Part shown: positions 1-53,512 of the stretch, piece after piece
Position numbering within the stretch: the first letter of the stretch is position 1
How the letters are laid out: each line of letters begins with the position of its first letter
NCBI GenBank assembly: GCA_029070965.1
Contig: JAIEBI010000058.1
Location: forward strand, 14,135-78,134
Length of the DNA stretch: 64,000 nucleotides
Direction: 5' to 3'
DNA from: Clostridiales bacterium
Lineage (GTDB): Bacteria; Bacillota; Clostridia; Christensenellales; Pumilibacteraceae
Program-made: the position numbers and the translations under genes
Notes under the pieces: generated by a model
Database searches by the model: none
The model's input: the letters and a program-made list of their open reading frames with translations, nothing else
What the model was told of the DNA's origin: nothing

Positions 1-1
1 A

Positions 2-4100: not shown

Positions 4101-5201
4101 TTGCCATATTGCAATAAAAAAATAATATCGTTTTTGCTTACTTCGCGCTGCAATATGGCGTGTAAGTACTGTTACGGTGCCCGAAAAGCGGACTACAACA
4201 AGTTAGACCTTGATTTTGCCAAGTGCGGCGTGGACGAATACGTCGCCACGGGCGCGGTCAACGGTATAAGATTTTTCGGAAACGGCGAGCCTACGACCGA
4301 ACCGCAGCTCATAAAAGATATTTGCGAGTATGCGCGCAAGTTCCGCAAGAACATTAATTGTGAAATTCAAACCAACGGTTATTTCGGCGAGGAGCTTGCT
4401 GAATGGCTCGCGTACAATATGGATGAGATTTGGGTGTCGATGGACCTTTTGCCCGACACGCATGACATGTTTCGCGTGACGCGCGGCGGCAAACCGACAT
4501 CGGGCGTTATCGAACGCAACCTCAAGTATTTTAAATCGCTCGCGGACAAGCGTGCGATGGTCGGCGTGCGCAGTACGATAACGCAGTACAACATTGACCG
4601 CCAAAAAGAGGGCATAGACTATCTTGCCAATCTCGGTATAAAGTATATTTGGGTCGACCCGATTTTTCCGCCGGTCAGCGAGGCGGAGGATAAGACGTTC
4701 GAGCCCATTGACATGATGCACTTTGCGCGTACGTTTATCGACGCGCGCGAGCACGGCAAAGAGCTCGGCGTTTTTTACGAAACCAATCTTACGACCAACT
4801 TTGACGGCCCGACATGCTACAACTGCCGTTCGTGCCTGCCTATGCCGCACCTCACTATGGACGGGTACGTTTCCGCATGCGAAATGTGTATGAGCGGGGC
4901 AAACCCCGAGGGGCTTGACGCGTTTGTTTACGGCAAGTACGACAAAGAGCATAACAAGATAATATACGACGAAAAAAAGATAGCGGTTTTGCAAAGCCGC
5001 ACGCTCGACAACCTTAAGGACTGTCGCGACTGCATTGCGCGCGAGCACTGCGCGGGCTTTTGCCTTGGCGAAACGCTCAACGAGAACGGCGATCTTTTCA
5101 AGATAAAACGCGTAATTTGCGAGCCGCTTAGGTATCTGTACGCAAAAATCGGCAACGACTATGCGCGCTTCGGCGGTGAGTTTAAATATAAGCACCCTTG
5201 A
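4101..5201 (+). CDS. Radical SAM / SPASM-domain protein
   Basis: C17xxxC21xxC24 (CNMACKYC), FFGNGEPT, QTNG, then SPASM-type CYNCRSC...CEMC and CRDCIAREHCAGFC...C. TTG start behind GAGGAG. Confidence 0.92.
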   Translation: MPYCNKKIISFLLTSRCNMACKYCYGARKADYNKLDLDFAKCGVDEYVATGAVNGIRFFGNGEPTTEPQLIKDICEYARKFRKNINCEIQTNGYFGEELAEWLAYNMDEIWVSMDLLPDTHDMFRVTRGGKPTSGVIERNLKYFKSLADKRAMVGVRSTITQYNIDRQKEGIDYLANLGIKYIWVDPIFPPVSEAEDKTFEPIDMMHFARTFIDAREHGKELGVFYETNLTTNFDGPTCYNCRSCLPMPHLTMDGYVSACEMCMSGANPEGLDAFVYGKYDKEHNKIIYDEKKIAVLQSRTLDNLKDCRDCIAREHCAGFCLGETLNENGDLFKIKRVICEPLRYLYAKIGNDYARFGGEFKYKHP

Positions 5202-5214
5202 TGAAGGAGGAAAA

Positions 5215-7584
5215 ATGGAAGAACGGAACAACACGATTGACGAATACGGCGGACTTGCCGAACCAAAGACGAGCGCCGAGCAAATTTTGCGTCAATTCAA
5301 GCGCAAGAGCGTAGTCGCAAGAGATTGGATAAAAGATTTGGTCGATAACGGTTACCGCAAGGCGGTAAAAACGGGGCGGCGTCGTTCTGTCGCGGCTTTG
5401 GAGGAAGGATTTTTCATGTCCGACGAAATGCCGGACGTGGGTGTGCTATCCATTGCTCCGTCGCTTTCCGCCCTTCTTTCCGAGCTGAAAGAGCTTAGGG
5501 AAGGCAAGGACGATGACGTTGCGGCGGGCGCAATGTCGTTTACCGATGTACTTACCGCCAATCGAAACGAAGTTTTGGACGTGGTCGTCAAGTCGGTATG
5601 CAGGCTGCTTGCCGAGTGCTATCCCGACGGACTGCACACCAATATAGAGGACGTGCTTTTTTCGAGCGCGCCGTTCTATGACGGTATTATGGCGGGCGGG
5701 CGTTCGGTGTGGGAGCGCGACGGATATCTTGACACCGCTAGCTGGGCTTTTCTTGTTGCCGACCTAATAGAGCTATTCCTCAACCGTTTTGAAGAATGTG
5801 CGCCCGAGCTCTACAAAAAAACCAAGTGGACGGTGTACGATGGCGATGAGGCGGAAAGCCTGTCGGTAGAAAGGGTGCGCGATTACGTACGCAATATTTA
5901 CTACGCGAGCATTCGCACGACTTGCGATTGCATAGTCAAGCGCGACGGCAAATATTTGGGCTGGACGTTCCGCAAGATGAGAGGCAGTGAGACGCAGCCG
6001 TCGCTGTACTTTTCGTACGTTGCGTCCACCGTTTACCTTGGACTTTATAATCGTTTTAACGGCACGAAAGATGTCATCGTAAACATGCGTAATTTCGAAG
6101 AGGCGCTTCAAAAAAAGAGCAGGGACGAAAATAACGACGACATAAAAAGATATAGATTCTACGACGGGTTCAAGAGCGCGGAAAAGTTTAATAAAATGCT
6201 CGAATGGCTGACGCGTAATGAATTCTATGAAGCAGTAAAGTTTTTGCGCCGTTTGTCTCCGAATGAGATTGCCGAGCTGAACCTTTTGTACAACATTATT
6301 AACGACGGAAAGCCTTTGTCGTTCAAGCTTGACGGCGATGACGGCGGTTCGTTTACCGTGCTTAAAGAGGCGTCGACCGGACTTGCCGAGATGCTGTGGA
6401 ATGAGGGGTATGGAACGTATAAGAATAAAGTGCCGTTTAGCGAAAACATGGCTAAGGGGCCGTGCTTCGAGGACGGTTCGCTTATCGAAATGGAGGTCAT
6501 AAAGCGCAGTAGCCACAACAATGCGTTCTTCAACAACTTGTTTGTTATAGGTATAATACTTAACTCGGCGTACGACATGGAGGTTATGAAAAAAGACCCC
6601 AAAGAGTACGAGCGCATGCTAAACATATTCCAGCTTTCCATTCAAAATACTCAGCGTTGCTACGACGAAATAGAGGAAAGAGGGCTGCTGTACAAGATTG
6701 ACAGCTACATACTCGATTTTTCCGACAAGGTGGACAGCGCCAATACCGAGCTTGCCAAACAGTTGCGCAGGGTGAACATGTCGGTTGTCCCGCTTATGCC
6801 GCTAATGCTTAAAAACAACAACTTGATGAGCCAGTACGTTGTTCAGTATCCGCAAAAGCAAATGACGGAATCCTTAAAGGATATTATTAAAAACCGCAAG
6901 TATGTGGGTGATGAAGAAAAGAAACAAAGTTGGGTTTGGGATAAAGACGGCTACAACTCCATAACCAACTATTACTACGTTGACGCGCTCATATCGTTTT
7001 ATCGTTACTACAAGCAATACGAAGAACCGTTGATTGAGAACGAAGAGCTGCTTCGTAGGCGCGAAGCGCAAGCGGCGAAAAATGCGCAAGATCAGGTTCA
7101 GGCAAAGCTGGACGATATGAAAACGGAGCTCAACGCCGAAATCTCCAAGCGTGACGAGAGAATTGCCGAGTACAGAAGGGTATTTAAGGACTTTGCGCGG
7201 CTTATGGTCAACGGACTTATCGACGTTGTGGACGAGCAAATTACGGCGGACAAACTCATCGGCACGCTCAGTAACGAAGAAAAAACCAATCGTGACACAG
7301 TTATCGGCGAGCTTAACTCGTTTAACAGGGATTCGGACACTGTCAAGCTCAGTTCGCTTGTGCATTTGACTGAAAAGCTGCAAATTCTGTCCCTTCTTTC
7401 CATGGACAGCAACGAGCAGCTTAGGGCGTTCCTCAAAAACAGCGGGGCGAATAAATATGACGGGCACGTCAACCTTATCGCCGACGCATTCGGTACAAAC
7501 GGCAACAGCACTAAGTTTATGCGCAACCTGTTGATATTTATAATAGACAGCTTGGCTGCTAAAAAGCCTGATTCGGATAATTAG
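5215..7584 (+). CDS. Large hypothetical protein (789 aa), helical repeats plus C-terminal coiled coil
   Basis: Long ORF; ATG 5215 follows GAAGGAGG (the track start at 5161 lies inside the upstream gene). Coiled coil EAQAAKNAQDQVQAKLDDMKTELNAEISKRDERIAEY. Confidence 0.85.
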   Translation: MEERNNTIDEYGGLAEPKTSAEQILRQFKRKSVVARDWIKDLVDNGYRKAVKTGRRRSVAALEEGFFMSDEMPDVGVLSIAPSLSALLSELKELREGKDDDVAAGAMSFTDVLTANRNEVLDVVVKSVCRLLAECYPDGLHTNIEDVLFSSAPFYDGIMAGGRSVWERDGYLDTASWAFLVADLIELFLNRFEECAPELYKKTKWTVYDGDEAESLSVERVRDYVRNIYYASIRTTCDCIVKRDGKYLGWTFRKMRGSETQPSLYFSYVASTVYLGLYNRFNGTKDVIVNMRNFEEALQKKSRDENNDDIKRYRFYDGFKSAEKFNKMLEWLTRNEFYEAVKFLRRLSPNEIAELNLLYNIINDGKPLSFKLDGDDGGSFTVLKEASTGLAEMLWNEGYGTYKNKVPFSENMAKGPCFEDGSLIEMEVIKRSSHNNAFFNNLFVIGIILNSAYDMEVMKKDPKEYERMLNIFQLSIQNTQRCYDEIEERGLLYKIDSYILDFSDKVDSANTELAKQLRRVNMSVVPLMPLMLKNNNLMSQYVVQYPQKQMTESLKDIIKNRKYVGDEEKKQSWVWDKDGYNSITNYYYVDALISFYRYYKQYEEPLIENEELLRRREAQAAKNAQDQVQAKLDDMKTELNAEISKRDERIAEYRRVFKDFARLMVNGLIDVVDEQITADKLIGTLSNEEKTNRDTVIGELNSFNRDSDTVKLSSLVHLTEKLQILSLLSMDSNEQLRAFLKNSGANKYDGHVNLIADAFGTNGNSTKFMRNLLIFIIDSLAAKKPDSDN

Positions 7585-7612
7585 TCTACACAACAAAGGA
7601 GAATAACACATA

Positions 7613-8569
7613 ATGGCTATAAATTCGTTTTTTTCGTATAAGGGTGGTTCGGGTAGAACAACAACGACGCTAAACACGTTGTACTATCTGATTCAGGAAA
7701 CGCAACCGGACCCGTCGCATCCGCTCGTTATAATCGACGCGGACAACGAGAGCTATGGCATGTCCATGCTGCTCAAAGATCCCGAAGAGTCGTATCCCAC
7801 CGAGGTATCGCTTCAAGGATTGGGGCTCACTGCACGGCAGGACACATTCGTCCCGAGCGGCAGGCCGGACGATTGGCGGTCGTACCGCAATTTGGCTAAG
7901 TTCTTTATTCCGGTCGGGCATTATTTCACCAAAGACATAGACAAGGAAGCGGTGCTTCTTTTGCGTTCGGACGTTACGCCGGCGGAGCAACAAGCTGCAT
8001 TCGAAGCGGTGTTTTCGGTCGACAAAAACGGTAGAGTGCATGATAATTTGAAGGCTCTTGTAGAAAAAATGGAGATATGCGATTGCACCGTTGTGTTTGA
8101 CACTCCGTCAGGCACGCAGGATATGGCGACATTCGCGCTCAACTATTCGGACACTATCGTGTGCTGCATGCGCCCGTCCGTTCAGTTCGAAATGGGCACA
8201 CGGCTTTGCTTTGAAAAGCTCATTGCCAAGTGGGGTAAATACGGCAACAGAAAGAAGATAATATTCTGCCCGTCGGCAGTGCCGTTCCGCAAGACGGACG
8301 TAGACGGCAACGTCTATCCCGAGCACTATATCAACACCGTGTTTTCGCGGTTCAAGTCGGAAATGGATACCAAGGCGCACGACACGGGTGGCACGGTCAA
8401 GATTGTTTGGGGTATGCAGGACGGTGAAGTTCCGGGAATTCCCGAGGTCGACCGCTTCAAGTGGCAGGAATGTTGTTTGGCTAAAATGGGCGGCAACAAG
8501 GAAGACGAGCGCATGGCTAAGGAAAAGTACCGCAAGCTCGCCCAGCTTATCGACCGTTGCAACGGTTAG
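7613..8569 (+). CDS. MinD/ParA (SIMIBI) family ATPase, KGGxGRT variant
   Basis: SFFSYKGGSGRTTT deviant Walker A, IIDAD switch, VVFDTPSG Walker B. RBS AAAGGAG. Confidence 0.88.
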   Translation: MAINSFFSYKGGSGRTTTTLNTLYYLIQETQPDPSHPLVIIDADNESYGMSMLLKDPEESYPTEVSLQGLGLTARQDTFVPSGRPDDWRSYRNLAKFFIPVGHYFTKDIDKEAVLLLRSDVTPAEQQAAFEAVFSVDKNGRVHDNLKALVEKMEICDCTVVFDTPSGTQDMATFALNYSDTIVCCMRPSVQFEMGTRLCFEKLIAKWGKYGNRKKIIFCPSAVPFRKTDVDGNVYPEHYINTVFSRFKSEMDTKAHDTGGTVKIVWGMQDGEVPGIPEVDRFKWQECCLAKMGGNKEDERMAKEKYRKLAQLIDRCNG

Positions 8570-8593
8570 TCTAAGGAGATTGTATTACCGAAA

Positions 8594-11107
8594 ATGGCTG
8601 AAACAACCGAAGAATTCGAATACGAAAAAGACGCAGTCGACAAAATACTCGATATTTGTCGCACGGTCGAGGACAGTGCGGTAAGGCAAATTCTTCTCGG
8701 CCTCGATTACGAGGTGGAGGATTACGAAAAGGCGCTTAAAAAGCTCGGCAAGACTCTTCGAATTGGTACTTCCGAATGTGCGCCGATGTTCAACCGCATA
8801 GTTAACCTTGCGTTTTTGTACATAGTTTCCAAGTACAATTCGCTAGGGCTATCCGCTTCGTCCAACTGCGAAGCGCGTATTCAGCACGCTATTCACCAAA
8901 TGTACAATATGTACAACGTTTCGGACGACGTCGTTAAGTTTGTAATAACCAACGTTGCGCTCGGGCTGGACGCTAGCGAGGAATTCCTTAAAAGATTCGA
9001 GATTATATCGGAGAGTGGTGAATTTTGCCGCAAGACCGACGAGTATATAGATATATTTAAGCATATACAAAAAATCCGCCAGTCATCGTTCAAGGTGACC
9101 GACAATATCGACAACTCTGCCGAGCTTTTGTACGAGCTATTCAAAAAACTCGACTTTATTTGCAAGCTTCGGATTATACCGAGCGACGAGTATGTCGACA
9201 AAGATTCCGCCGTTGCGCCTTGCTCTTTCAAGGTGAACGGCAAGGTTTTCCCGTCCAAGTATTCGCTTGTAAAGTATAAGCGCAACGAGTTCACTACCGA
9301 ATATTTATTTTTGCGCAGCGTGGACGACCGCGAGTTTCCCAACGGCAAAGTAGCGCTTACGCTTAACTATACGAGTCTGGGCAATTACGACACGGGCGAG
9401 TTGACCAAGGTTTTGGTTGTGGGGCTTGATTTCAAGAGGAATCCGCACGCCGTGCGCACACCGAGCTCCGGCAATTACGACACGGGCGAGTTGACCAAGG
9501 CTTTGGTTGATGGGCGCAATTTCAATGAAAATGAGCCCACAGTACTCACGCCGAGCGTCGGCAAATTCTACTCGTACATCACCGGTGACTTGCTTAGAAA
9601 AAGACACAGAATGTCGTTTTGTAACGGTTTGACCGGTTATAAGTATTACGGCGAGCTTGCGGCTGCCGTCATGGACGCGCTCGAAATACTTACCGTTAGC
9701 GGCGATAAAACGTACACCGTTGTAGACAACTACATTTTGCCCGTCATCAAAAACAACTTTAACATATGTAAAGAGGATTGCGTTTGCACGGGCGACGGCT
9801 GTGAATTTGGCATGCGCGATCGTAAGTGCAACAAGTATAAGTGCGTCGATTCGGAAGAGCAGCTCATAACCAAATGTCTTATACACATGGACACGGTGTC
9901 CATACTCACGATACTCTTTTCCGTCGTGGGCTGCAAAGAGATATTGCCGCAAATATTTTCGCAGTTCCATTTCGATACTCCGAAGTCGTACGACAGTCTT
10001 TTTGCGCGCGTCAACGAGCAGCTTGACAAGCGGTTTTCGGAATTTTCGGGTGCTAATGTTGACAATCTTCGCACGAAGTTTTACAAAAAATCGATAGACT
10101 ATTTGTCGCTCGATATAGACAAAAGCGAGTCCGAGGATATTGTCGTCGCGCAAACGCTTAAACCGTTTAAGATACGCGCATATACCGACGCGCTTATTGC
10201 CACTCTCGAAAACCTCGACAAGGAGCCGCTCGATTACAGCGTCAATCCGAGCGAGACCGTTTACACCATAGGCGGCAAGATAGACCTTATCAACGGGCTT
10301 AAAGACATAAATACCGACGACGTAAAAAGCGTACTTCGTGATACGCTCAAAATAATTCTCGCGTACTATTCCGGCCTTGCCAACTGCAAGGGACAACAGC
10401 TAAATTACGAGATTCAAGCGGAGCAAACGACGACGCTCAAAGAAGCGACGGTCAAGCAATGCTACGCGGACATAAACAAAGCGTTTATGAAGGGCGTCGA
10501 CCGCAAGATGGAGCGGCTCGGGCCTAACCCCGACTTTTACACGCTTTTCCACGAGCTTTTCGAGGACATTAAGGACCTGAAAACGGATATTTCCATAATG
10601 CTCGGCAGAGAGATTGTGAGTGCTCGCGGACTATGGTGGTTTGTCGAGCTCGACGACGAGAAGAAAAAATGCTATCTCGTCGAGCGTCGCCGTAAGGACG
10701 GCGGCGGAGGAATGAATACCGTTTATCGGTGTGACCTCGACGACGACAAAAAGTGTGCGGCGGACATTAAAAAATTTACTTCGCGCGTCGTGGCGATTTT
10801 GGAGTTTTTGCGCGGTGAGGAGTCGCGCGGGGCGCGATACGCGTGCTATCCGCAGGTGCTTATTCACACAAGCAGCAAGATAAACGTCGACAACACTACG
10901 ATTAATGCGTTCACCGTGTACGACAACGAGCACTATACGCGCAAAAAGGAATATAACGTAATAACGTATTTCGCGTACGAGATAAGCAAGAGGTATTATT
11001 ATATCGTGCCGAAAAAGTTTGAAAAGACGCGCTGGATAACGTATCCCATACTTATACGTTGTTCCGAGTTCTATAACCGCGTGATAAAGGAGAACGGCAA
11101 TGAGTAA
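8594..11107 (+). CDS. Large hypothetical protein (837 aa) with internal 30-aa duplication and Cys-rich segment
   Basis: Long ORF, RBS AAGGAG, overlaps the TIR gene start by 8 bp. No family recognised. Confidence 0.85.
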   Translation: MAETTEEFEYEKDAVDKILDICRTVEDSAVRQILLGLDYEVEDYEKALKKLGKTLRIGTSECAPMFNRIVNLAFLYIVSKYNSLGLSASSNCEARIQHAIHQMYNMYNVSDDVVKFVITNVALGLDASEEFLKRFEIISESGEFCRKTDEYIDIFKHIQKIRQSSFKVTDNIDNSAELLYELFKKLDFICKLRIIPSDEYVDKDSAVAPCSFKVNGKVFPSKYSLVKYKRNEFTTEYLFLRSVDDREFPNGKVALTLNYTSLGNYDTGELTKVLVVGLDFKRNPHAVRTPSSGNYDTGELTKALVDGRNFNENEPTVLTPSVGKFYSYITGDLLRKRHRMSFCNGLTGYKYYGELAAAVMDALEILTVSGDKTYTVVDNYILPVIKNNFNICKEDCVCTGDGCEFGMRDRKCNKYKCVDSEEQLITKCLIHMDTVSILTILFSVVGCKEILPQIFSQFHFDTPKSYDSLFARVNEQLDKRFSEFSGANVDNLRTKFYKKSIDYLSLDIDKSESEDIVVAQTLKPFKIRAYTDALIATLENLDKEPLDYSVNPSETVYTIGGKIDLINGLKDINTDDVKSVLRDTLKIILAYYSGLANCKGQQLNYEIQAEQTTTLKEATVKQCYADINKAFMKGVDRKMERLGPNPDFYTLFHELFEDIKDLKTDISIMLGREIVSARGLWWFVELDDEKKKCYLVERRRKDGGGGMNTVYRCDLDDDKKCAADIKKFTSRVVAILEFLRGEESRGARYACYPQVLIHTSSKINVDNTTINAFTVYDNEHYTRKKEYNVITYFAYEISKRYYYIVPKKFEKTRWITYPILIRCSEFYNRVIKENGNE
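9380..9559 (+). repeat. In-frame 90-bp tandem duplication
   Basis: GGCAATTACGACACGGGCGAGTTGACCAAGG is identical at 9380-9410 and 9470-9500. The remaining ~59 bp of each unit are diverged. Confidence 0.9.
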
Positions 11108-12278
11108 GACTTTTCTCGACCGAAAAAATCCGGACGTGCCGTATGTGTTTATAAGCTATTCCCATGCGGACGGCGACCCCGATAAACCCGAAAAAAATTA
11201 CGTCGGAAAGATGCTGACTGCGCTAAACGACCTCGGCGCGAATTTTTGGTACGACAGCAAACTCCGCATCGGACAAGATTGGTTTGAAAGGGTCAAGGCG
11301 GTAACGGCAAACAAGAATTGCATGGGAATCATCTACATAATGAGTCCCGATTTCATGCTGAGTGACGCCTGCTTTAAGGAATTTTCGCTTTTTGACGAGC
11401 TCAAAAAAACACACGACAATTTTCGCGCGTGTCACATTTTGATGGACGAGGAAAAGCCGACAGACTTTTATAAGTTTATCGATGACGCTCGCGATAAGCT
11501 ACGCGCCAAAGGATTGGAACGCGATAAAGCTAAAATAATACGTCAGAATTTAGAAGAATATGAAGACTGCTTCGATCCCAATATTCTCTATTGCGCTATT
11601 GCAAAGTCCGACGTGGACGACGACAAATTTGTGCGCAAGCTGTTTGCAGACGTTTTTCAAGCTTGGGGTTGCGCTTCCGAGGAAACGGGCAAGATAGACG
11701 CTCTCGTAGATGATCAGCTTGTGAACGGCGATTATCGTATAAAAATCAAAGACTGCTACATGCTTACGGGCATCGTCAACCGAAGCGAGGCGGAATGGAA
11801 AGCGTTTTCTTACAACGGAAACACACTGTCCGCGATACTTGTCTCTGAAGAGCTGTACTCGGCTACATGTCGCTCGCTCGCAAAAAACGCAATGGCGGAA
11901 ACGAATAGGCTTATCAACATTTCCGAAAAAGCGGATGCGGATGAGAAGATACAACAAGAAAAACATTTCGTATTCGATCCCGATTTTTTGGAGTGTTTAA
12001 TCAAAGATGAGGATGGAAATGTTATTAGATTTTTGCGTGCGTCGGAACACACCAAGAACTATTTGCAGTTAAGGGAAGCGCTTACAAAAGTGCCGCCAAC
12101 CTCGGCTGCGGACGACGGATACTTTTTCGTCACCGACAATCAGGATAACGTTTTGTTTGCCGACAGGGCGAGCGACGACGTTTACAGGCATATCCACGTC
12201 GACGCGTACGCCAGCCTGTTTCCGGTTATCGATATAGATTTAAACAAGTATAAAGAGTATATAGCCAAGAAAAATTAA
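11100..12278 (+). CDS. TIR-domain protein with DUF6273-like C-terminal region
   Basis: YVFISYSHAD, FWYDSKLRIGQDW, IMSPDFMLSDACFKE (E94) = TIR_2 signature. The C-terminal assignment is weaker. Confidence 0.85.
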   Translation: MSKTFLDRKNPDVPYVFISYSHADGDPDKPEKNYVGKMLTALNDLGANFWYDSKLRIGQDWFERVKAVTANKNCMGIIYIMSPDFMLSDACFKEFSLFDELKKTHDNFRACHILMDEEKPTDFYKFIDDARDKLRAKGLERDKAKIIRQNLEEYEDCFDPNILYCAIAKSDVDDDKFVRKLFADVFQAWGCASEETGKIDALVDDQLVNGDYRIKIKDCYMLTGIVNRSEAEWKAFSYNGNTLSAILVSEELYSATCRSLAKNAMAETNRLINISEKADADEKIQQEKHFVFDPDFLECLIKDEDGNVIRFLRASEHTKNYLQLREALTKVPPTSAADDGYFFVTDNQDNVLFADRASDDVYRHIHVDAYASLFPVIDIDLNKYKEYIAKKN

Positions 12279-18275: not shown

Positions 18276-18663
18276 GGGGATGTATTGGCTTCGACGGCGC
18301 GGCTCAGCGACGGAAAGCAGGTGATAGGGTCGGCTATCTAAAAACGCAAAAGGCTTTAATTGCCAACAAAAACGAAAACGCCAAAGTCATGAAGTTCGCA
18401 GCTCCTGTTGCGGCTCCGGCAATGGCATTCGCAGCTTAGTTTTAGCTGCACGTTCGGCTCTATATCCTATCGGTAGATGATCGGGCGTAATCAAGATGGG
18501 CTCCCGCGCGGGGGATTGGTCGCACCCCGAACGGAACAAGACCTTGCGGCGCACCGCCTTTGTATATTGCGGCGGCGCGTCGGACATCAAGCAATAAACT
18601 AAACCTGTAGAAGTCCGCGTAACCCCGCGTCGGAAACCGGTTCAAATCCGGTCATCTCCACCA
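18276..18663 (+). ncRNA. ssrA: tmRNA
   Basis: 5' GGGGATGTATTGGCTTCGAC and 3' GGTTCAAATCCGGTCATCTCCACCA tRNA-like ends. Tag frame 18362-18439 ends in FAA*. Promoter TTGCAT-17-TATATT at 18218-18246. Confidence 0.95.
18645..18663 (+). repeat. attL core (19 bp, 3' end of ssrA)
   Basis: AATCCGGTCATCTCCACCA, exact copy at 52036-52054. Confidence 0.93.
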
Positions 18664-18790: not shown

Positions 18791-19936
18791 TTATTTGATT
18801 TTATCGATGATAGCTTGTTTATCGGCCGCGTAAAGATGCCCGTAAGTTTTTAGAACTTGCTCCGGCGTGTCGTTAATTAGGTCCGCAATGACAAAAATAT
18901 TTGCGCCGAGATGTACGCACATTGATACAAATGAGTGCCGCAAGTCGTAAACGCGAATCTGTTTTACGCCCGATTTTGCCACGTATCTATCAAAGGCGTG
19001 GGCGATTGTGTTTTCATGGATTGGGTGGTCGCCGCCGAAATAGAAAGGCGATTGTGGCGTATACTCAGCAAGGGCTTGTTTAAGCGGAGCGCAAATTTGT
19101 GAGTAATCTCTTTGTTCGTTTTTGGTTGACGTTATGGAGTAGGGGGTGTCATCGAGTGTCTTGCGGGAATAAGTCTTATCAAATAAAATGGTGCTTTCCG
19201 ATACGTCGTCTGCTTGCAGTGCGATTATTTCACCCTTGCGCCGTCCCGTATAAAACATCATGCTGAAAAATGTGCGGTATACGGGATTGTCTACGGTGGC
19301 GATAAATTGGTTAAATTCCTCGACCGTCCAAAATTTCATTTTGGTTTTAGGCGTTCGACGTCGCGGCTTGCGTAACTTCGATAAATTGTTCTCAATTCCG
19401 TAGCGGTCGGACAACCAAGTCAATAGCGCGCTCAAAGACGTGCGTATTTTTGTCAGATAAGCGTGAGAATAGTATTGATTGGTCTTTGGGTTGCGCATGG
19501 ACCACAGCTCGTCCTGCCACCGATAAAGGCGCTCCCGCGTGAGATTTTTTATAGGCTCACTGCCGAGCTGCGGGATAATATATTTATTATAGTTGTTTTT
19601 CTTGTCGTAGATAGAGCTGTCTTTGTTTTGATTGCCGAGTGCGGCAAGGTAGAGCGGAACCACGTCCGCCACCGTTTGTTCACTTGTTGCGTCCACTTCG
19701 ACAGGTTTACGTACCGCTTTACGCTTGGCGAGTTCACAGTACTCTTGCACAAAGTCAAGGTAGGCTTGTTTTGCATCGCCTTTGGTTTTAAAGCCGGACA
19801 GCTTCTTTTGCTTTTCCACACCTTCCATTGTTACAATGCGGAATACGATATCGTAAACGCGCCCGCGCTTGGTTTGGCGTTCGTGCGTGGAAAACTTGTT
19901 GGAGCTTATATAATAGCGTTCGGGGGTGGTGTTCAT
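18791..19936 (-). CDS. int: Phage tyrosine integrase
   Basis: N-terminal arm-binding KQKKLSGFKTKGDAK, FYTGRRKGEIIAL, YDLRHS, TYGHLY catalytic Tyr. Confidence 0.93.
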   Translation of the reverse strand: MNTTPERYYISSNKFSTHERQTKRGRVYDIVFRIVTMEGVEKQKKLSGFKTKGDAKQAYLDFVQEYCELAKRKAVRKPVEVDATSEQTVADVVPLYLAALGNQNKDSSIYDKKNNYNKYIIPQLGSEPIKNLTRERLYRWQDELWSMRNPKTNQYYSHAYLTKIRTSLSALLTWLSDRYGIENNLSKLRKPRRRTPKTKMKFWTVEEFNQFIATVDNPVYRTFFSMMFYTGRRKGEIIALQADDVSESTILFDKTYSRKTLDDTPYSITSTKNEQRDYSQICAPLKQALAEYTPQSPFYFGGDHPIHENTIAHAFDRYVAKSGVKQIRVYDLRHSFVSMCVHLGANIFVIADLINDTPEQVLKTYGHLYAADKQAIIDKIK

Positions 19937-19939
19937 ATT

Positions 19940-20479
19940 TTACTGTTTGGGCTTTGATATGGTATCCTTGGCGGGTGTTTTAGCTAATTTGTTCATAATG
20001 CGATTTTTTTGTTTAACAAAGCTGTTAGAGTTTTCATCATTCGCAGCGTTCTTATATCCTTTACTTATAGCTAAATCGCATAATCTAATGGCTTCTTGAT
20101 ATTCGCCGTGCTTTTCTAATATTATTATCTTACGAGATAATGAACCGGCAAATACAAAGCTACTATGCGATTCTTTAATGGTTGCTTTCTGAACATCATC
20201 ATAAAGCGCTATATCCATGTCGCACATAAGTAGGCAATAATCAAGCGCGGTGTCGGCGACGTCTCTTAATTTATATATGATATTTATAAGTTCAATTAGC
20301 GCATAGTGTAGGGGGATTACACAGGAGAGAGTGGGGCGAGTGTAAGAGTTTATCTCGCAAGCTTTATTATATATGTCTTTTGCCGACATAGCTTTGTAAT
20401 TTTCTCTTACGGCAAGCTGAACACGTCCGACCCTTTCGCCATACGCATTTTGCTTGTTTAATTCAGTGATGAAGTCCAT
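19940..20479 (-). CDS. Hypothetical immunity-region protein (TPR-like helix pair)
   Basis: ORF tightly between cI and int; ILEKHGEYQEAIRLCDLAISKG. Confidence 0.75.
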   Translation of the reverse strand: MDFITELNKQNAYGERVGRVQLAVRENYKAMSAKDIYNKACEINSYTRPTLSCVIPLHYALIELINIIYKLRDVADTALDYCLLMCDMDIALYDDVQKATIKESHSSFVFAGSLSRKIIILEKHGEYQEAIRLCDLAISKGYKNAANDENSNSFVKQKNRIMNKLAKTPAKDTISKPKQ

Positions 20480-20482
20480 GAC

Positions 20483-21115
20483 TTACCTCACATCACTTTG
20501 GAACGCGACAGCCTTGCCGAGAATGCGGATTTCGTTTAGTTCATCATTCTTATAAACAAATTCCTTGTATTTTGGGTTTTCCGGCCGAAGTACAAGCATT
20601 TTATTTTCAGGATAGTAATATACGCGTTTAAGTGTTGCTTCGTCGCCAATTAGTACAACTGCAATTTCTCCATTCTCGACCATGTCTTGTTGACGGCAGA
20701 AAACAATATCTCCATCCATAATACGAGCGCCAATCATGCTGTCTCCTTGCGCCGTAAGGCAAAAGTCAGCATTTATATCCGTGCCAGCCATAACATAGCT
20801 CTCTCTATCCTCGTCCGCATAAATAGGTTCGCCGCAAGCGACTTTGCCGAGCATTGGAACGCGGCGGCGGCCGATGGGGGAAAGGCTAGGGATGTCGTAA
20901 ATGCCGCTGTTTGTTGTGTGACGCGCGTCAGTTCGGCCAAGTAGATAATCGACCGATACGCCAAAATACTCGGCGAGTTTATTTAGTGTTGTGAAGTCGG
21001 GCTCACGTAAGCCATTTTCATAATTTGATAGTGCTTGCATGCTCATCCCTATAACCGTTGCCACGTCCACTTGTTTGAGCTTTTTTTCACGACGCAATTC
21101 TTTTAATCTATTCAT
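20483..21115 (-). CDS. CI/LexA-like repressor (HTH_3 + S24 peptidase)
   Basis: MNRLKELRREKKLKQ..LSNYENGLREP; VACGEP cleavage site, GDSM Ser, ATLKR Lys. RBS GAGGT before ATG 21115. Confidence 0.92.
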   Translation of the reverse strand: MNRLKELRREKKLKQVDVATVIGMSMQALSNYENGLREPDFTTLNKLAEYFGVSVDYLLGRTDARHTTNSGIYDIPSLSPIGRRRVPMLGKVACGEPIYADEDRESYVMAGTDINADFCLTAQGDSMIGARIMDGDIVFCRQQDMVENGEIAVVLIGDEATLKRVYYYPENKMLVLRPENPKYKEFVYKNDELNEIRILGKAVAFQSDVR

Positions 21116-21139
21116 TTTGTGGTACCTCACATTGATTTT

Positions 21140-21233
21140 AACATATTGTTTAAAAAAATTCCACAAATTGTTAAAAAATACTTGACATTCCTCAAAATGT
21201 GTAGTAAGCTATATTTACGCTCAACAATTTGAG
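21140..21233. promoter_or_regulatory. Lysis/lysogeny switch: rightward promoter and candidate operators
   Basis: TTGACA (21182)-17-TAAGCT. Related 11-mers AACATATTGTT 21140, CACAAATTGTT 21162, CTCAAAATGTG 21191, AACAATTTGAG 21223. Confidence 0.55.
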
Positions 21234-33040: not shown

Positions 33041-33472
33041 ATGGCGGAGTTTAGAGAGCGCGAGCATCCTCGCGGACAGCCTGATAATGCAGGACAGTTC
33101 GTCAAAAATGGTGAGGCGCAAGGCGGAAGTGCGCAATCAAAGGAGTATTCAAATCTTCCGAGTGCAGGGCAATTGGTTGAGCGCTATGAGCGAAAGTTTG
33201 GTACTGTCGACCGAGAGCAATTAACGCCAAGCGAATGGCGCAGGTATTATGATGCTATCGGGGATATTAAAGCAGAGACAGTTCGGGAGCGTAAAACAAA
33301 GAATGGGAATCGCTGGGTTATACTTAATTCCGACGAATTGCCTGACGGAACGAGAACGCCCGCAAGGCTGATTATTGACAACGGCAAGTACATTTCGCCT
33401 AAGGTCAAGACAATATTGACGTTTGATAATGATGACGAAATGTACGACTTAATGGACAGGTTGGGGAGGTAG
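33041..33472 (+). CDS. Hypothetical protein with N-terminal HPR motif
   Basis: FREREHPRGQPDNAGQF; RBS GGAGG. Confidence 0.75.
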   Translation: MAEFREREHPRGQPDNAGQFVKNGEAQGGSAQSKEYSNLPSAGQLVERYERKFGTVDREQLTPSEWRRYYDAIGDIKAETVRERKTKNGNRWVILNSDELPDGTRTPARLIIDNGKYISPKVKTILTFDNDDEMYDLMDRLGR

Positions 33473-33789: not shown

Positions 33790-34173
33790 GTGGCGAACGA
33801 AAAAAACTTAAAACCGCCGCGAAGCACGAGCGAAGCAAGAGAAAGAGGCGCGAGAGGCGGGAAAGCGAGCGGCGAAGCGCGTCGGCGTAAACGTAGTTCG
33901 CGTGAAGTCTTGGAAATGCTCAATCGCCTTAATGCAACCGAGCAAGAGGCGGCGGAGCTTGCCAGTAATGGCGTGTCCAAAAATAATATGACGCGGCAAG
34001 TCCTCCGCATGTGGGGGCTACAAAAGAAAGCTGAGAGCGGCGACGTCGCGGCCAACCGCCTTATTCTTGAAGTACTTGGCGAACTCAATGCGCCTACCGT
34101 TCCCGATGACAGCGATAGCGGCTTCACGTTTAAGATAGAGGATTTCAGTAATGACGACGTTTCCGATACCTAA
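33790..34173 (+). CDS. Terminase small subunit (putative)
   Basis: MANEKNLKP..EARERGARGGKASGEARRRK; directly upstream of terL. Confidence 0.7.
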   Translation: MANEKNLKPPRSTSEARERGARGGKASGEARRRKRSSREVLEMLNRLNATEQEAAELASNGVSKNNMTRQVLRMWGLQKKAESGDVAANRLILEVLGELNAPTVPDDSDSGFTFKIEDFSNDDVSDT

Positions 34174-35494: not shown

Positions 35495-37039
35495 ATGAGC
35501 TTTCAAATTCCACAGTATTTACAATCATATCTCGACAAAAAGAAAGACAGTCCGTATTCGAACTACGTCAACACGTCGGAGTACTACGCCAATACGAACG
35601 CGTATGTAATGAATTACCTTAACCGCGTTGTTAGGCAGTGCATGGCGTATGCGAATGGTGCGCAGGACGGAGCGTATAACAGCGGACTGTCGGCGAATAT
35701 CGGGTACACAGCGATTAAAAACGCGACAAAACTCATTAAGGGTGACAAAACGATATTTGCAGGTGACGATCACGCAACGGCGTTTTTGTCGGATACTTGG
35801 GCGCCGTATGCGCGGTTTGACATATTCCTTGAGGAGCTTATCAGCTACACGCTTGCGGGCGGCACGGCGCTTTTCAAACTCAACAAAGATTCGCTTGGTC
35901 GGTGTTCGCTGTCAGCGTCGCGCGTGGATCGTAACACGTTCACCGTTGTCGACAATGGCGACATAGTGGACGTAACGTTTATGCTTACGCTTCTATCAAG
36001 CACTACGAGCAATAACGTGAACGAAGCGTTGTGGCTTGTTGAGCGTCGATATTACGCGGAGGACCGCAAACCTACGGTTGTCTATCACGTTCACCGAAAA
36101 AGCGGCATTGCGGGCAATGAGACGATGCCCAATACCGATGGGGAAGGCTTGCCGTATGACGCACTCCCGCTCGTTGCGAAGCAAGCGGTTGAGCGACTGG
36201 GTATAGAGCTTGACACGCCTATGGAATTACCGTACCGCGACGGACTTGGCGTATGGGCGTCGCTCAATACGGCGACGAATAGCTGCGTACCTGGACTGCG
36301 CATGGGAGACCCCGCGCTGTACTCGACGCTTGACTTACTGTGGTCGATTGACACGGTATTTAGCGGCTCGCTGATAGACGTACTCAATGGCGAAGGCAAA
36401 GTTCTTGTGCCGAAGCGTTTTCTCGGCAATATCAACGCAGCGATACAAAAAGCGTTAAAAGCGCGACCGGACTACGGAACACTTGATGCGGTTGATGAGG
36501 GTGACAGCGGGTTTGTATATGTATCTACGCCGCATGACAAGGATTTCCCGCCTACGGACGTGCAGTTCGATATCCGCTCGGAGCAGTATCGCGGTATGTG
36601 GGAGCTATACCTAAAACAATTCGCAGTTGCGTTCGGTTACGCGCCGACAACACTGTTCCCGTATTTACAAGACGCGTCACCTAAGACGGCACGAGAAGTC
36701 ACGGCGGAAGAGAACTTGACGCGGGCGAGTGTGCAATCAGCACACCGCTTACTTATCCCCGAGCTTAACCGCGCGATTGCCGAAGTGTTGTATCAAGCAG
36801 GCTTTAAAGGCAAAGCGACATTGCAGCTTTCCGATTACATAGGCAACAAGCTTATGCGCGACGAGAACTTGCGGCAAAATTATGCGGCTGGACTTATCCC
36901 GCACGAAACGGCAGTGCAAATCGCAAACGGTTTGTCGGCAAAAGAGACGGCAGAGTATATGGCAAAGATTGCGACCGAGCAAAAAGAGACGGCATTCGGC
37001 GGCAAGCAGTATGACGACACTGATTATTTCGGAGGATAG
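35495..37039 (+). CDS. Portal protein (A118/SPP1-like)
   Basis: 514 aa after terL; KTAREV signature; QFDIRSEQY. Confidence 0.82.
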   Translation: MSFQIPQYLQSYLDKKKDSPYSNYVNTSEYYANTNAYVMNYLNRVVRQCMAYANGAQDGAYNSGLSANIGYTAIKNATKLIKGDKTIFAGDDHATAFLSDTWAPYARFDIFLEELISYTLAGGTALFKLNKDSLGRCSLSASRVDRNTFTVVDNGDIVDVTFMLTLLSSTTSNNVNEALWLVERRYYAEDRKPTVVYHVHRKSGIAGNETMPNTDGEGLPYDALPLVAKQAVERLGIELDTPMELPYRDGLGVWASLNTATNSCVPGLRMGDPALYSTLDLLWSIDTVFSGSLIDVLNGEGKVLVPKRFLGNINAAIQKALKARPDYGTLDAVDEGDSGFVYVSTPHDKDFPPTDVQFDIRSEQYRGMWELYLKQFAVAFGYAPTTLFPYLQDASPKTAREVTAEENLTRASVQSAHRLLIPELNRAIAEVLYQAGFKGKATLQLSDYIGNKLMRDENLRQNYAAGLIPHETAVQIANGLSAKETAEYMAKIATEQKETAFGGKQYDDTDYFGG

Positions 37040-37042
37040 TGC

Positions 37043-38080
37043 ATGGATTTAGCGGATAGAGGACTTAATCCGCAAGCGGAAGCAATTGAGGAAGCGCAAA
37101 CGGAAATACGCGTTGCGGTTCGTGACGGCTATCTTGCACGCAAATCAAAAGCCGCTATTAATACGGAGATTCAAACCATTATTAGGCGCAAGCTTAAAAG
37201 CGTGAAAAATGCGGACTTGCGCTCTGCTGCGGTGCAGTCGCTCAATGCATTTGCGGAGCGACAGTACAACACTTATTTGCGTGAGTTTGGCGCTCTGCCG
37301 ACATATATACTTTTGCTGTCCGTGCTGATAAACGACGCTCCGACAGCACCTTCATTTGAACGTGCGGCAACCGACATACAACGTTATGCGCCCGTCACAT
37401 ACGAAACAGGTGCGCACGGTGTGCCGCTGCAAGAGTATTCACGCGATTATTTCAAGCGAAATGTAGCGCCCGTGTTGGAGCGCCTTGCGAACGAGAACGC
37501 GCTCGATCCCGACGACGTAAGTGGTCGCAATAGTTTACGCAACCGTGCGGAAATGGAAGTGCGGTATGCGCGACATCTCGACGAAATTGAGGCACTACGG
37601 GCGGCGGGTATTAAGCTTGTTACGAGCTCCGTACACGCCGATTGTTCGGACCGCTGTTATGAGTGGCAAGGGCGCGTATATAGTCTTGATGGCACAAGTG
37701 GCACGACCGAGGACGGCAAGCCGTATGTGCCGATAGAAACGGCAACGGACGTGTATTACACCACGAAAGCCGGTAAGGTGTACAAGAACGGGTTGTTTGG
37801 GTTTAATTGTCGACACTATCTTGTTACATATACGCCGAACATGGTTATACCGCATGTGAGCCGCGAAACGCAAAAGAAAGAGCAGACAATTAACACGCGA
37901 CAGCGCGAGCTTGAACGACGCGTGCGCGAACAGCGCGAAAAAGCACTAATGTTCCGTGACATAGACCGCAATCGCTATTTGGTGGCGAGGCGGCGGGCGA
38001 TAGAAACCAACAAAGAATATATACAATATAGCAAAGATAATGGCAGGGCGTACTACCCGAGCCGTACAAAACTTTTATAA
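37043..38080 (+). CDS. Minor capsid protein (MuF / Phage_min_cap2-like)
   Basis: SSVHADCSDRCYEWQGRVYS..GLFGFNCRHYL. Confidence 0.82.
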   Translation: MDLADRGLNPQAEAIEEAQTEIRVAVRDGYLARKSKAAINTEIQTIIRRKLKSVKNADLRSAAVQSLNAFAERQYNTYLREFGALPTYILLLSVLINDAPTAPSFERAATDIQRYAPVTYETGAHGVPLQEYSRDYFKRNVAPVLERLANENALDPDDVSGRNSLRNRAEMEVRYARHLDEIEALRAAGIKLVTSSVHADCSDRCYEWQGRVYSLDGTSGTTEDGKPYVPIETATDVYYTTKAGKVYKNGLFGFNCRHYLVTYTPNMVIPHVSRETQKKEQTINTRQRELERRVREQREKALMFRDIDRNRYLVARRRAIETNKEYIQYSKDNGRAYYPSRTKLL

Positions 38081-38093
38081 AGGAGCAATCGTT

Positions 38094-38477
38094 ATGAAGA
38101 ACAAGACCAAACTGAACTTGCGCATACAGCGCAACAACAATCTGAACGACATCGTTTATGATGATACCGCGGGTCCGGGAAATGGGCGACATCATTACCA
38201 AGTATTCCTAAAAGGCAATGAAGATACTGTTGCGTCGCCGTTGCTTGATATTCAATTTCAAGAGGGACCGCGTAAAGACCCGCGTTCCGTATCGGGCGTA
38301 CTGGAAACCGACCTTTTGGAAATTGTGCGTCATAGACTTCAATGCTTCCAACTCGGCGAATACCACACGGATGAGAACGCTTTTGCGCTTATGCATATTG
38401 AAGAAGCACTTATGTGGCTCAATAAACGCGTAGAAGACCGTGCGGAACGTGGCGTACTCGGTACGATGAATAAGTAA
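38094..38477 (+). CDS. tad1: Tad1-family anti-Thoeris/anti-CBASS signal-sequestering protein
   Basis: GPGNGRHHY..IQFQEGPRK..GVLETDLLEIVRHRLQCFQ..ENAFALMHIEEALMWLNKRVEDRAERGVLGT closely follows the C. botulinum Tad1 sequence as I recall it. Confidence 0.85.
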   Translation: MKNKTKLNLRIQRNNNLNDIVYDDTAGPGNGRHHYQVFLKGNEDTVASPLLDIQFQEGPRKDPRSVSGVLETDLLEIVRHRLQCFQLGEYHTDENAFALMHIEEALMWLNKRVEDRAERGVLGTMNK

Positions 38478-38504
38478 GGAGCGATCATGAATAAATCCAC
38501 CAGA

Positions 38505-38530
38505 AGCCGCGACCACCCTCGCGGTTTTTT
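38505..38530 (+). terminator. Stem-loop with T-run after tad1
   Basis: AAGCCGCGA-CCACCC-TCGCGGTTTTTT. Confidence 0.6.
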
Positions 38531-38567
38531 AATGCAAAAAATTTTTGGGAGGTAACAAAGACAAATT

Positions 38568-39080
38568 ATGGCATTTCCATTTTTCAAAAAAAAGAAACAG
38601 GAGGACCAAAACGAAATGACCACACTCGAACAAGTCCATAAGGCTTATGAGGACCTTTCGGACGACGACAAAAAGAGTTTCCATCAGTCGATTGCCGACC
38701 GTATTCACGAGAGTATAGGCGAGCAGGAGCATGACGACGGAAACGAGGACAGCCAGTCGGCGGAAGCGCGCGAACACGAAGCGCTCGGCGCGGAACACGC
38801 TGACGGCAAGGGCGACGTCGCGGAGTTGCACGAAAAGGACGACAGCGCGGAAGAGAAACGCGAGGACAAGGATGACGAGGATAAGTACGGAGCCATTCTT
38901 GCACGACTGGAAGCGCTCGAAAAGCGATTTGAAGCAAACGACGACACGGATGCAAAAGCCGCCGAGGAAGCGGCAAAGGTGTACGGCGTAGGAAACGGTG
39001 TGTTCGCCGCCGCGCATAAGGATGAAGAAAAAATTACACCGAAAGAAGCGAGCGAAATCGCACGCAAATTCAAAATGTAA
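38568..39080 (+). CDS. Capsid scaffolding protein (putative)
   Basis: Highly acidic and helical, immediately before the major capsid gene. Confidence 0.65.
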   Translation: MAFPFFKKKKQEDQNEMTTLEQVHKAYEDLSDDDKKSFHQSIADRIHESIGEQEHDDGNEDSQSAEAREHEALGAEHADGKGDVAELHEKDDSAEEKREDKDDEDKYGAILARLEALEKRFEANDDTDAKAAEEAAKVYGVGNGVFAAAHKDEEKITPKEASEIARKFKM

Positions 39081-39098: not shown

Positions 39099-40391
39099 AT
39101 GCCAGACAATGTTATTACCACAGGTCTTAACGACACCTCGGTGTTCTTGCAGAACGCCGCAAACCTTAAAGCTCCGTTCACGGTCAATCCGTCGAGCGGA
39201 CAATTTCCTGCACTCGGCAATATAGCGGTAAATCGCCGCCTTGCGTCGCAGTGGCAGCTCATTCACCTTGACGAGCGCATTTTCGTTGACGGCATGGGCA
39301 TTACGTCCATGAACGCCGAAAGCGAAGATGCAGCGGGCGTTCGCATCCCTATGCTCGTTCCGCCCGTGCGCAATATGCGTACGCTTGCAATCACGCCGTG
39401 CGGCAGCGGCGTAGGGCAAGGCACGCCCGGCAACGACCAAGCGTTTAACCGTAACTTGCCGCACGGTATGCAAACCAATGCCGTGGATATCTGGTTTAAT
39501 CAGGTATACGACGAGGCTGCGCAAATCTCGCGCGATCAAGCCAAGATGATAGGTAACAACCTTGACATCCTCGGACAGTTCACGGCCACGATTCCGCAGG
39601 TCACGGCACAGCTCATGGACGCGGAAATCATGGCGACACAAATTGCATCGGCGCTCTCGGTGCTTGGCAACAACGGATTGTACTACAATCCCGCGACCGA
39701 TACCGACGGCTATATGCAGTCGATAATGAACAGCCTCGGCACTTCATTGTCGAACGTAAAGAACGGCTATGTCGAGGGCATTGTATCGTATCCAGTTGAA
39801 AAGAGCGTGTACGTGCTACGTTACCGCGCATTTAACAAGCTCATGACAATCAAGAACGGCGCCATCGTCAACAGCGATATCGGTCAAAAGATTTTGCTGA
39901 ATGGCAAGTTCGACGATACCGGTTCGCGCTACCTCGGCGGGGCTATTCGCGGCTCGTACGGCGGCATTCTTATCAAGGTCGTTCCCGACGCATACTGGGA
40001 TTTGGCGGCGGCATTGCTCAATCTTACGGCTGAACAAAAAGCGCAGTTCGACAAGATTGACGGCTACATTGCCAACGGTCTCGGTACATACTTCGGTCGC
40101 GCCGCAGTCGCAACCGATGTGGATAAGTCGCCGACAACGTCTATGGGCTACATCGTACGTAATGATTGGCGCTGGGGTACGGTTGTTGCGCGTCGCTCGT
40201 CCATACAGCTACTTATCAGCTCGGCGAACAATGGCACCGACTTCACCAACCCCGTCACGGACTTCAAGGGCGTTATCGCACCGTCCGACGTCGAGGCGGT
40301 GCTTTCGACGTACAACGGCGGCACAGATACGACCGTGCAGCGTATCGAAGTCACGGGCAAGACTACGACGGACGATACCCCGACGAAATAA
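39099..40391 (+). CDS. Major capsid protein (putative)
   Basis: 430 aa, strong RBS AAGGAGA, GC-rich third positions, position in the head module. Confidence 0.72.
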   Translation: MPDNVITTGLNDTSVFLQNAANLKAPFTVNPSSGQFPALGNIAVNRRLASQWQLIHLDERIFVDGMGITSMNAESEDAAGVRIPMLVPPVRNMRTLAITPCGSGVGQGTPGNDQAFNRNLPHGMQTNAVDIWFNQVYDEAAQISRDQAKMIGNNLDILGQFTATIPQVTAQLMDAEIMATQIASALSVLGNNGLYYNPATDTDGYMQSIMNSLGTSLSNVKNGYVEGIVSYPVEKSVYVLRYRAFNKLMTIKNGAIVNSDIGQKILLNGKFDDTGSRYLGGAIRGSYGGILIKVVPDAYWDLAAALLNLTAEQKAQFDKIDGYIANGLGTYFGRAAVATDVDKSPTTSMGYIVRNDWRWGTVVARRSSIQLLISSANNGTDFTNPVTDFKGVIAPSDVEAVLSTYNGGTDTTVQRIEVTGKTTTDDTPTK

Positions 40392-52035: not shown

Positions 52036-52054
52036 AATCCGGTCATCTCCACCA
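52036..52054 (+). repeat. attR core
   Basis: AATCCGGTCATCTCCACCA, identical to 18645-18663. Confidence 0.93.
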
Positions 52055-53477: not shown

Positions 53478-53512
53478 TATTTTACTAAAGTTCAAAATGA
53501 TTGGTGCGGCAT

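Follow-up and report, generated by a model that had tools for sequence, protein, structure and literature searches.

The window analysed here is a stretch of 64,000 nucleotides from a Clostridiales bacterium (assembly GCA_029070965.1, contig JAIEBI010000058.1), and all positions given below refer to it. It carries a prophage, in whose head module, directly 3' of a minor capsid gene, lies a small gene (P0001) encoding a member of the Tad1 family of phage proteins, which sequester nucleotide signals of bacterial immunity. P0001 starts 14 nt past the stop codon of the upstream gene, with an AGGAG motif 7 nt 5' of its ATG, and as its ribosome-binding site begins at the minor capsid stop codon, the gap between the two genes is too short for P0001 to have a promoter of its own there. 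Comparison of P0001 with the Tad1 proteins CbTad1 and CmTad1 suggests that it has kept the pocket for glycocyclic ADP-ribose (gcADPR), a signal made by TIR proteins, and for cyclic dinucleotides (CDNs), while the second pocket of the family, which binds cyclic trinucleotides, has recently lost its ligand-contacting residues.

The assignment of P0001 to Tad1 draws on both its sequence and its predicted fold. A phmmer search of 177,635 chain sequences from the PDB gave meaningful scores for Tad1 entries only, with CbTad1 (7uav/7uaw/8smd, 8kbe-h) matched at E=1.6e-28, a score far beyond chance in a set of that size, over residues 10-126 of the query and 7-124 of the chain, and CmTad1 (8kbb-d) at E=6e-16. 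The near full-length match to Tad1 that an earlier note on this DNA had proposed from the letters alone was thus borne out, and the C-terminal tail it described, NKRVEDRAERGVLGT, is present, as is the motif ENAF in place of the ENAC of CbTad1 (C94 to F97). P0001 falls in phrog_2428 of the PHROGs database (E=1e-30), a family without a recorded function; a search of NCBIfam returned no Tad1 match, and the precomputed annotation of the sequence collection gives PF24729.3 (Acb2_Tad1_hairpin) for P0001, with PF24729 in all of its more than 1,100 homologue clusters. An AlphaFold2 model of the monomer, built from 42 homologues with a mean predicted local distance difference test score of 88.4, has the Tad1 topology of an N-terminal antiparallel beta-sheet (strands at residues 4-6, 18-23, 34-39, and 51-55) followed by two long helices (71-87 and 93-118). 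A Foldseek search of the PDB with this model returned 20 matches with E<1e-3, all of them Tad1 with template-modelling (TM) scores of 0.75-0.85, including 0.82-0.85 to ligand-bound CbTad1, and the next match had E=2.7. P0001 differs from its sibling P0126, which is 95% identical and comes from a related phage contig of an independent sample (L098), synonymously at 38 codons and non-synonymously at 6, and the gene overall is thus under purifying selection. Taken together, these comparisons confirm, at the level of sequence and modelled fold, that P0001 is a genuine and correctly recognised Tad1-family member, and an ordinary addition to a well-known family.

Eleven residues of CbTad1 contact 1''-2' gcADPR (H29, G55, R57, R78, F82, F87, N92, R109, R113, G120, and N122; Leavitt et al., 10.1101/2022.05.03.490397). 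Residue numbers of the CbTad1 chain in the PDB equal the native numbers plus one, and with that offset all eleven match the expected letters. In the phmmer alignment they correspond to H33, G58, R60, R81, F85, Y90, N95, R112, R116, G123, and M125 of P0001, of which nine are identical, one is a conservative change (F87 to Y90), and one is changed (N122 to M125); the C-terminal lid, ERGVLGT, is also kept. The guanine of 2',3'-cyclic GMP-AMP (cGAMP) is held in CbTad1 by Q8, L13, and L119, and all three are retained as Q12, L17, and L122. Among the 120 closest homologues, the columns of the gcADPR and cGAMP guanine contacts show little or no variation, and they stay highly conserved across 150 representatives of clusters formed at 50% identity, where G58 is found in 145/145 sequences, R112 in 145/148, R116 in 143/147, and R81 in 141/148. 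By its residues, the gcADPR and CDN pocket of P0001 is intact. Leavitt et al. tested ten diverse Tad1 homologues, and all of them inhibited Thoeris (10.1101/2022.05.03.490397).

The second pocket has changed. Tad1 assembles into a hexamer, and cyclic triadenylate (cA3) and cyclic AMP-AMP-GMP (cAAG) bind at its three-fold interfaces through R90 and T97 of CbTad1, where residues nearby pack against the bases; the single substitutions R90A or T97A nearly abolished cA3 binding and inhibition of NucC while leaving gcADPR binding intact (Li et al., 10.1101/2023.11.15.567273). P0001 has D93 and M100 at these positions, and two residues that line the pocket, S89 and C94 of CbTad1, correspond to H91 and F97. 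As C94 lines the trinucleotide pocket, the ENAF change is one part of a four-residue change within a single pocket, and cA3 binding is predicted to be lost because R90 and T97, each of which is needed in CbTad1, are both changed. Among the 120 closest homologues the pocket columns hold R in 116, T in 114, and C in 87, and D, H, and F occur there in P0001 alone. Four relatives with 81-84% identity (P0007-P0010) have R, R, C, and T at positions 91, 93, 97, and 100 of P0001, and P0126 has R, N, F, and I. In a maximum-likelihood tree P0001 and P0126 are sisters (support 99/93) nested among forms with R, R, C, and T, and the loss of the pocket is thus derived and recent in this subclade. Three of the 6 non-synonymous changes between P0001 and P0126 lie in 5 pocket positions (hypergeometric P=6e-4), and P0010, the nearest relative examined (81% identical), is separated from P0001 by 24 changes, which affect 4 of the 5 pocket positions (P=0.004). 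Unlike the gene as a whole, the trinucleotide pocket is not under purifying selection. Across the family, only 58 of 147 diverse representatives retain the Arg/Thr pair and 13 have Asp at the Arg position, while Li et al. reported substitution of the trinucleotide site in 6% in their preprint (10.1101/2023.11.15.567273). Loss of the site is thus recurrent in the Tad1 family and, counted by diversity, commoner than the 6% figure suggests, which lowers the novelty of the change described here; the trinucleotide pocket is an accessory rather than a universal feature, and its loss does not exclude membership of Tad1. Where the earlier note expected sequestration of gcADPR and some cyclic oligonucleotides, the gcADPR and CDN part agrees with the residues found, and the cA3 part does not, R90/T97 being D93/M100.

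We consider it likely that P0001 acts as a signal sponge of a temperate prophage that sequesters gcADPR, with or without CDNs, and does not capture trinucleotides. As is typical of Tad1, the protein would assemble at least into a head-to-tail dimer, whose two interface pockets would enclose TIR-made 1''-3' and 1''-2' gcADPR and would probably also take dinucleotides of the 2',3'-cGAMP type, the signal thereby being kept from its host effector during lytic growth or induction. The pocket for cA3 and cAAG on the three-fold axis would be lost, unlike in CbTad1, CmTad1, and the closest relatives, leaving a sponge for TIR signals and possibly CDNs only. Its hexamer might be weakened, with the interface residues M107, W108, K111, E103, and E104 kept and the Arg/Thr contacts lost. 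Several points weigh against this assignment. All statements about function derive from homology to CbTad1 and CmTad1. At the changed gcADPR contact, N122 is M125 in P0001; N126 follows it, and the column varies among homologues. With hmmscan, the Pfam model Acb2_Tad1_hairpin (PF24729) scored 20.1 bits against a cut-off of 27 and covered residues 94-113 only. The host genome (assembly of 1.81 Mb, 94.5% complete) was negative for STALD, SIR2_2, ThsB_TIR, and DUF2270, and so for a canonical Thoeris effector; of these negatives, that for STALD is weak, given that the STALD control matched in no control genome. The interior of a late structural operon is an odd place for a protein that has to act before a signal accumulates. 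Finally, the three-fold pocket, as changed, might have another ligand instead of having none.

The evidence on the three-fold pocket also bears on two other explanations. If the changed residues still formed a working pocket, P0001 would be a fully dual-function Tad1 that binds gcADPR and cyclic trinucleotides as CbTad1 does. The retained hexamer contacts are compatible with this, and the Arg/Thr pair is absent from 89 of the 147 representatives, which means either that many Tad1 proteins do not bind cyclic trinucleotides or that other residues can serve. Against it stand the CbTad1 substitutions, since either alone was nearly sufficient to abolish cA3 binding and both positions are changed in P0001. 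In addition, the acidic D93 would be expected to repel the phosphates that are to be bound, a bulky Phe replaces the lining Cys, and the sibling has other residues (N and I) at the same sites, which looks like a loss of constraint. We therefore regard dual function as unlikely. The pocket may instead have been re-tooled by diversifying selection, either towards a different host signal or in escape from a host decoy nucleotide of the kind used in Panoptes-type surveillance. The clustering of changes in the pocket given above, in a gene that is otherwise strongly conserved, would agree with such selection, and CbTad1 and ColiTad1 trigger Panoptes (PMC12657218), which would put pressure on sponges to narrow their binding. 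However, simple relaxation of constraint after loss predicts the same pattern, the siblings differ in their new residues (D/N, M/I, and H/R) such that no new conserved pocket chemistry is evident, and the Panoptes decoy is a dinucleotide, which would be expected in the other pocket. No mCpol or like system came to light, although no search was aimed at one. Re-tooling accordingly seems improbable to us. A metal site formed by H91 and D93 at the three-fold axis was considered and dropped, as P0126 has R91 and N93 there.

Features of the window discussed in the text, with the matches or observations on which their naming is based
Feature	Position	Strand	Basis and remarks
Host five-gene operon outside the prophage	4101..12278	+	Context only; no link to Tad1 shown
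Operon TIR protein	11100-12278	+	392 aa, N-terminal TIR; TIR_2 30.1 bits, cut-off 28
tmRNA gene	18276-18663		ARAGORN
attL, 19-bp direct repeat AATCCGGTCATCTCCACCA	18645..18663	+	Equals the 3' end of the tmRNA gene
Lysogeny module	18791..21166	-	Integrase, 179-aa ORF, repressor
Tyrosine integrase	18791-19936	-	phrog_1, E=1.3e-52
CI/LexA-like repressor	20483-21166	-	phrog_4, E=2.2e-46
Terminase large subunit (TerL)	34151-35485	+	phrog_3717, E=2.5e-26
Portal	35495-37039	+	phrog_533, E=1.1e-26
Minor capsid/head morphogenesis protein, SPP1 gp7-like	37043..38080	+	phrog_581, E=1.4e-22; Phage_min_cap2, E=1.5e-18
Ribosome-binding site of Tad1, AAAGGAG	38077..38086	+	Read from the sequence; begins at the minor capsid stop codon
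Tad1-family sponge gene P0001	38094..38477	+	127 aa; ATG at 38094, TAA at 38475-38477
Micro-ORF	38487..38555	+	22 codons; core peptide RSRDHPRGF
Terminator-like hairpin within the micro-ORF	38502..38530	+	Core CCGCGA-CCACCC-TCGCGG at 38507-38524, then T6
Candidate scaffold	38568..39080	+	Acidic, 170 aa; position alone, no family match; same place in relatives
Candidate major capsid	39099..40391	+	430 aa; position alone, no family match; syntenic 517-532 aa genes in relatives
attR, second copy of the 19-bp repeat	52036..52054	+

The carrier of P0001 is a temperate siphovirus-like prophage. The 19-bp attachment (att) repeat is the sole exact repeat of at least 12 bp between the two flanks and delimits a prophage of 33.4 kb (18645-52054) with clean ends, integrated at the 3' end of the transfer-messenger RNA (tmRNA) gene. 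Its early region carries Gp157, ERF recombinase, PcfJ-like, YopX, and GIY-YIG genes. The order TerL, portal, minor capsid, Tad1, scaffold, and capsid was seen in other samples too, on five related phage contigs (L004-L006, L098, L099, and L100), indicating that Tad1 is a stable resident of this phage lineage and not a recent insertion. The earlier note, which described the gene as inserted between the minor capsid and scaffold genes, was thus correct as to position, the scaffold being named by its place only, though the word 'inserted' would suggest a recent event. A search of sequencing runs turned up the source gut metagenome and no RNA run. Megablast with default settings found no match between the window and L004 at 75% identity, and a codon-by-codon comparison was used. 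Outside this lineage, Tad1 homologues at 80 genomic loci lie in unrelated phage backgrounds with neighbours that are not conserved, in agreement with the horizontal movement of Tad1 described by Leavitt et al. (10.1101/2022.05.03.490397).

A micro-ORF (open reading frame) follows P0001, with an AGGAG motif at 38477-38481 that overlaps the Tad1 stop codon. It is present in 5/5 related phages with a length of 19-24 codons and an invariant RSRDHPRGF core, and the codons of this core vary synonymously (AGA/CGG/CGT for the first Arg, GAC/GAT, CAC/CAT, CCT/CCA, and GGT/GGC), while the two Arg codons within the stem of the hairpin it contains are always CGC. RNAfold gave -16.2 kcal/mol for a 76-nt stretch (z=-2.7), and the stem-loop after Tad1 reported in the earlier note is real; it lies inside the micro-ORF. 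A consensus terminator scan did not list the hairpin, and its core stem is invariant in the 5 relatives, with no covariation to back it. These patterns suggest constraint on both the micro-ORF peptide and the RNA structure, and the hairpin may terminate transcription in a translation-sensitive manner before the scaffold and capsid genes are reached. It is conceivable, though we think the odds poor, that both features have functions of their own: the three-fold pocket would have been reshaped by selection, through a new signal of TIR-rich, CBASS-poor gut Clostridia (CBASS, cyclic-oligonucleotide-based antiphage signalling system) or through avoidance of a decoy sensor, and the micro-ORF and hairpin would form a translation-gated switch that sets readthrough from Tad1 into scaffold and capsid. 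Elsewhere in the prophage, just before the small-terminase region, a 143-aa ORF (33041-33472, + strand) without a family match begins MAEFREREHPRGQPDNAGQF, and the HPRG motif at its start is also the motif of the micro-ORF 3' of Tad1.

TIR genes are common in the host family. TIR_2 matches were found in 66 of 117 host-family genomes and in 28 of 30 congeners, such that the statement that the host carries a TIR says little. STALD was matched in 3 of the 117 genomes, SMODS, the domain of CD-NTases (cGAS/DncV-like nucleotidyltransferases), in one, Tad1 in 3, and a marker of the five-gene TIR operon of the window (P0005) in 2. The host genome itself had no match to SMODS, SAVED, or Csm1, the negative for SAVED being again weak, as the SAVED control matched in no control genome. 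Abundant TIR genes and near-absent CBASS cyclases would fit a sponge that has kept its TIR-signal pocket and lost its trinucleotide pocket, in a family in which few genomes bear Tad1. The earlier suggestion that the phage meets TIR or CBASS signalling in this host lineage is accordingly plausible in its TIR half and implausible in its CBASS half, with a CD-NTase in a single genome of the 117.

The same note had named the TIR operon, some 26 kb from P0001, as a target. The operon encodes, in order, a radical SAM/SPASM protein (Pfam Radical_SAM), an 807-aa protein of unknown function, a KGGxGR-type ParA-like ATPase, an 837-aa protein of unknown function, and the TIR protein. NCBIfam matches to the ATPase (AAA_KGGVGR) and the TIR protein (FxsC_Nterm) are both below cut-off, PADLOC gave only weak ThsB/pVip matches (best ThsB model E=1.6e-4), and a protein-atlas search of the TIR protein returned 'TIR' and nothing more. 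The weak FxsC_Nterm match gives the operon a loose resemblance to actinobacterial FxSxx-COOH loci. Searches of Pfam, PADLOC, and NCBIfam recognised no signal-sensing effector domain in the operon (SLOG/STALD, Macro, SAVED, DUF2270, caspase-like, and others), and the Macro genes of the host genome lie on other contigs, beside neither of its TIR genes. The operon does not read as a recognisable Thoeris system. A homologue of it occurs in one congener at a different locus, with 51-59% identity over the 837-aa protein, and the relative G019 has the operon homologue and the SIR2-TetR-tmRNA block on separate contigs, C1 and C14, respectively.

That P0001 specifically neutralises a diffusible signal of this radical-SAM/ATPase/TIR operon is, in our estimation, distinctly unlikely. 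In its favour, the TIR domain scores above its Pfam cut-off and has Glu94, in SDACFKEF, where TIR NADases have their catalytic Glu (the aligned region stops just before it), the prophage must grow in a host with the operon, and the diversity of Thoeris-like systems extends far beyond the canonical types (10.64898/2025.12.03.692087). However, the operon lacks a known signal-receptor domain, and neither a radical-SAM nor an ATPase partner came up in a text search of that systematic survey of TIR signalling. Thoeris types signalling through canonical cyclic ADP-ribose are not overcome by the Tad1 of SBSphiJ7. The marker of the operon is in neither of the other two Tad1-carrying host-family genomes, which have no TIR_2 match either. 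The adjacency, not conserved in G019, is explained by the att site of the prophage being the tmRNA 3' end and not by functional pairing, and the proposal of the operon as a target has no support. A second TIR locus of the host, at ~39.3-41.4 kb of contig C29 (L003 7317-9449), is at least as good a candidate, and the C-terminal TIR of the 275-aa protein encoded there matches TIR_2 more strongly (97.6 bits; PADLOC PDC-S66). This gene adjoins one for a 357-aa zinc-ribbon and PD-(D/E)xK protein (PDC-S69), in what looks like a small defence island near the contig end.

Just to the right of attR, at 53501-55616 (+ strand; GC fraction 0.34-0.38), are an EcoRI-type adenine methyltransferase (E=2.8e-138) and a GmrSD_N/HNH protein, and the tmRNA site is thus flanked by defence-type genes on both sides. 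Position 1-3977 (+ strand; GC fraction 0.41), 5' of the TIR operon, holds two large BspA-type leucine-rich-repeat proteins, one of them also with Sel1 repeats, flanking a calcineurin-like phosphoesterase. A congener has an extra 74-bp copy of the tmRNA 3' end (91% identity) on another contig (G001:C10:44963-45036), which is what use of this att site by another element would be expected to leave in that genome.

Lastly, a decaying or co-opted gene without sponge activity, such as a structural head accessory, is barely credible, for although P0001 lies inside the head module and several homologues from Bacillus phages carry the label 'structural protein', those labels are depositor annotations for which no evidence is shown, and they are opposed by the excess of synonymous changes against the sibling, the invariant ligand-contact columns, and the inhibition of Thoeris by ten of ten diverse homologues (Leavitt et al.).

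The Tad1 family is well studied, with 799 homologues reported in 2022 and 1,587 non-redundant ones in a 2025 survey, and one more prophage copy therefore adds little. Of more interest is the pair of near-identical phage lineages, one of which keeps the trinucleotide pocket and one of which has lost it, with the gcADPR pocket frozen in both. In a TIR-rich, CBASS-poor host clade the pair offers a clean natural test of which host immunity maintains which half of the sponge, and the protein could serve as a gcADPR-selective bait that would not pull down trinucleotides.

Among known systems, CbTad1, which is likewise borne by a prophage of a Clostridia host (Clostridium botulinum; 7UAV, 7UAW, 8SMD, 8KBE-H), shares ~45% identity over the full length with P0001, as well as its fold and its lid. 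P0001 differs from it in D93/M100 for R90/T97, H91/F97 for S89/C94, and M125 for N122, in a predicted loss of cA3 and cAAG binding, and perhaps in a weaker hexamer. CmTad1 (8KBB-D; ~34% identity, TM ~0.8) has the same two-helix hairpin and conserved M/W/K hexamer contacts, while keeping the trinucleotide site as R88/T95 and differing from P0001 in the lengths of the loops around the dinucleotide pocket. P0007-P0010, from phage contigs of gut metagenomes, have the same length, position, head synteny, micro-ORF, and hairpin as P0001 and an identical gcADPR pocket, and they keep R, R, C, and T where P0001 has H, D, F, and M and its sibling R, N, F, and I. Acb2 (anti-CBASS 2) has in common with Tad1 the PF24729 hairpin, the logic of a hexameric sponge, and a three-fold trinucleotide pocket, but it is without the N-terminal beta-sheet and the gcADPR pocket of Tad1, and P0001 matches Tad1 structures only.

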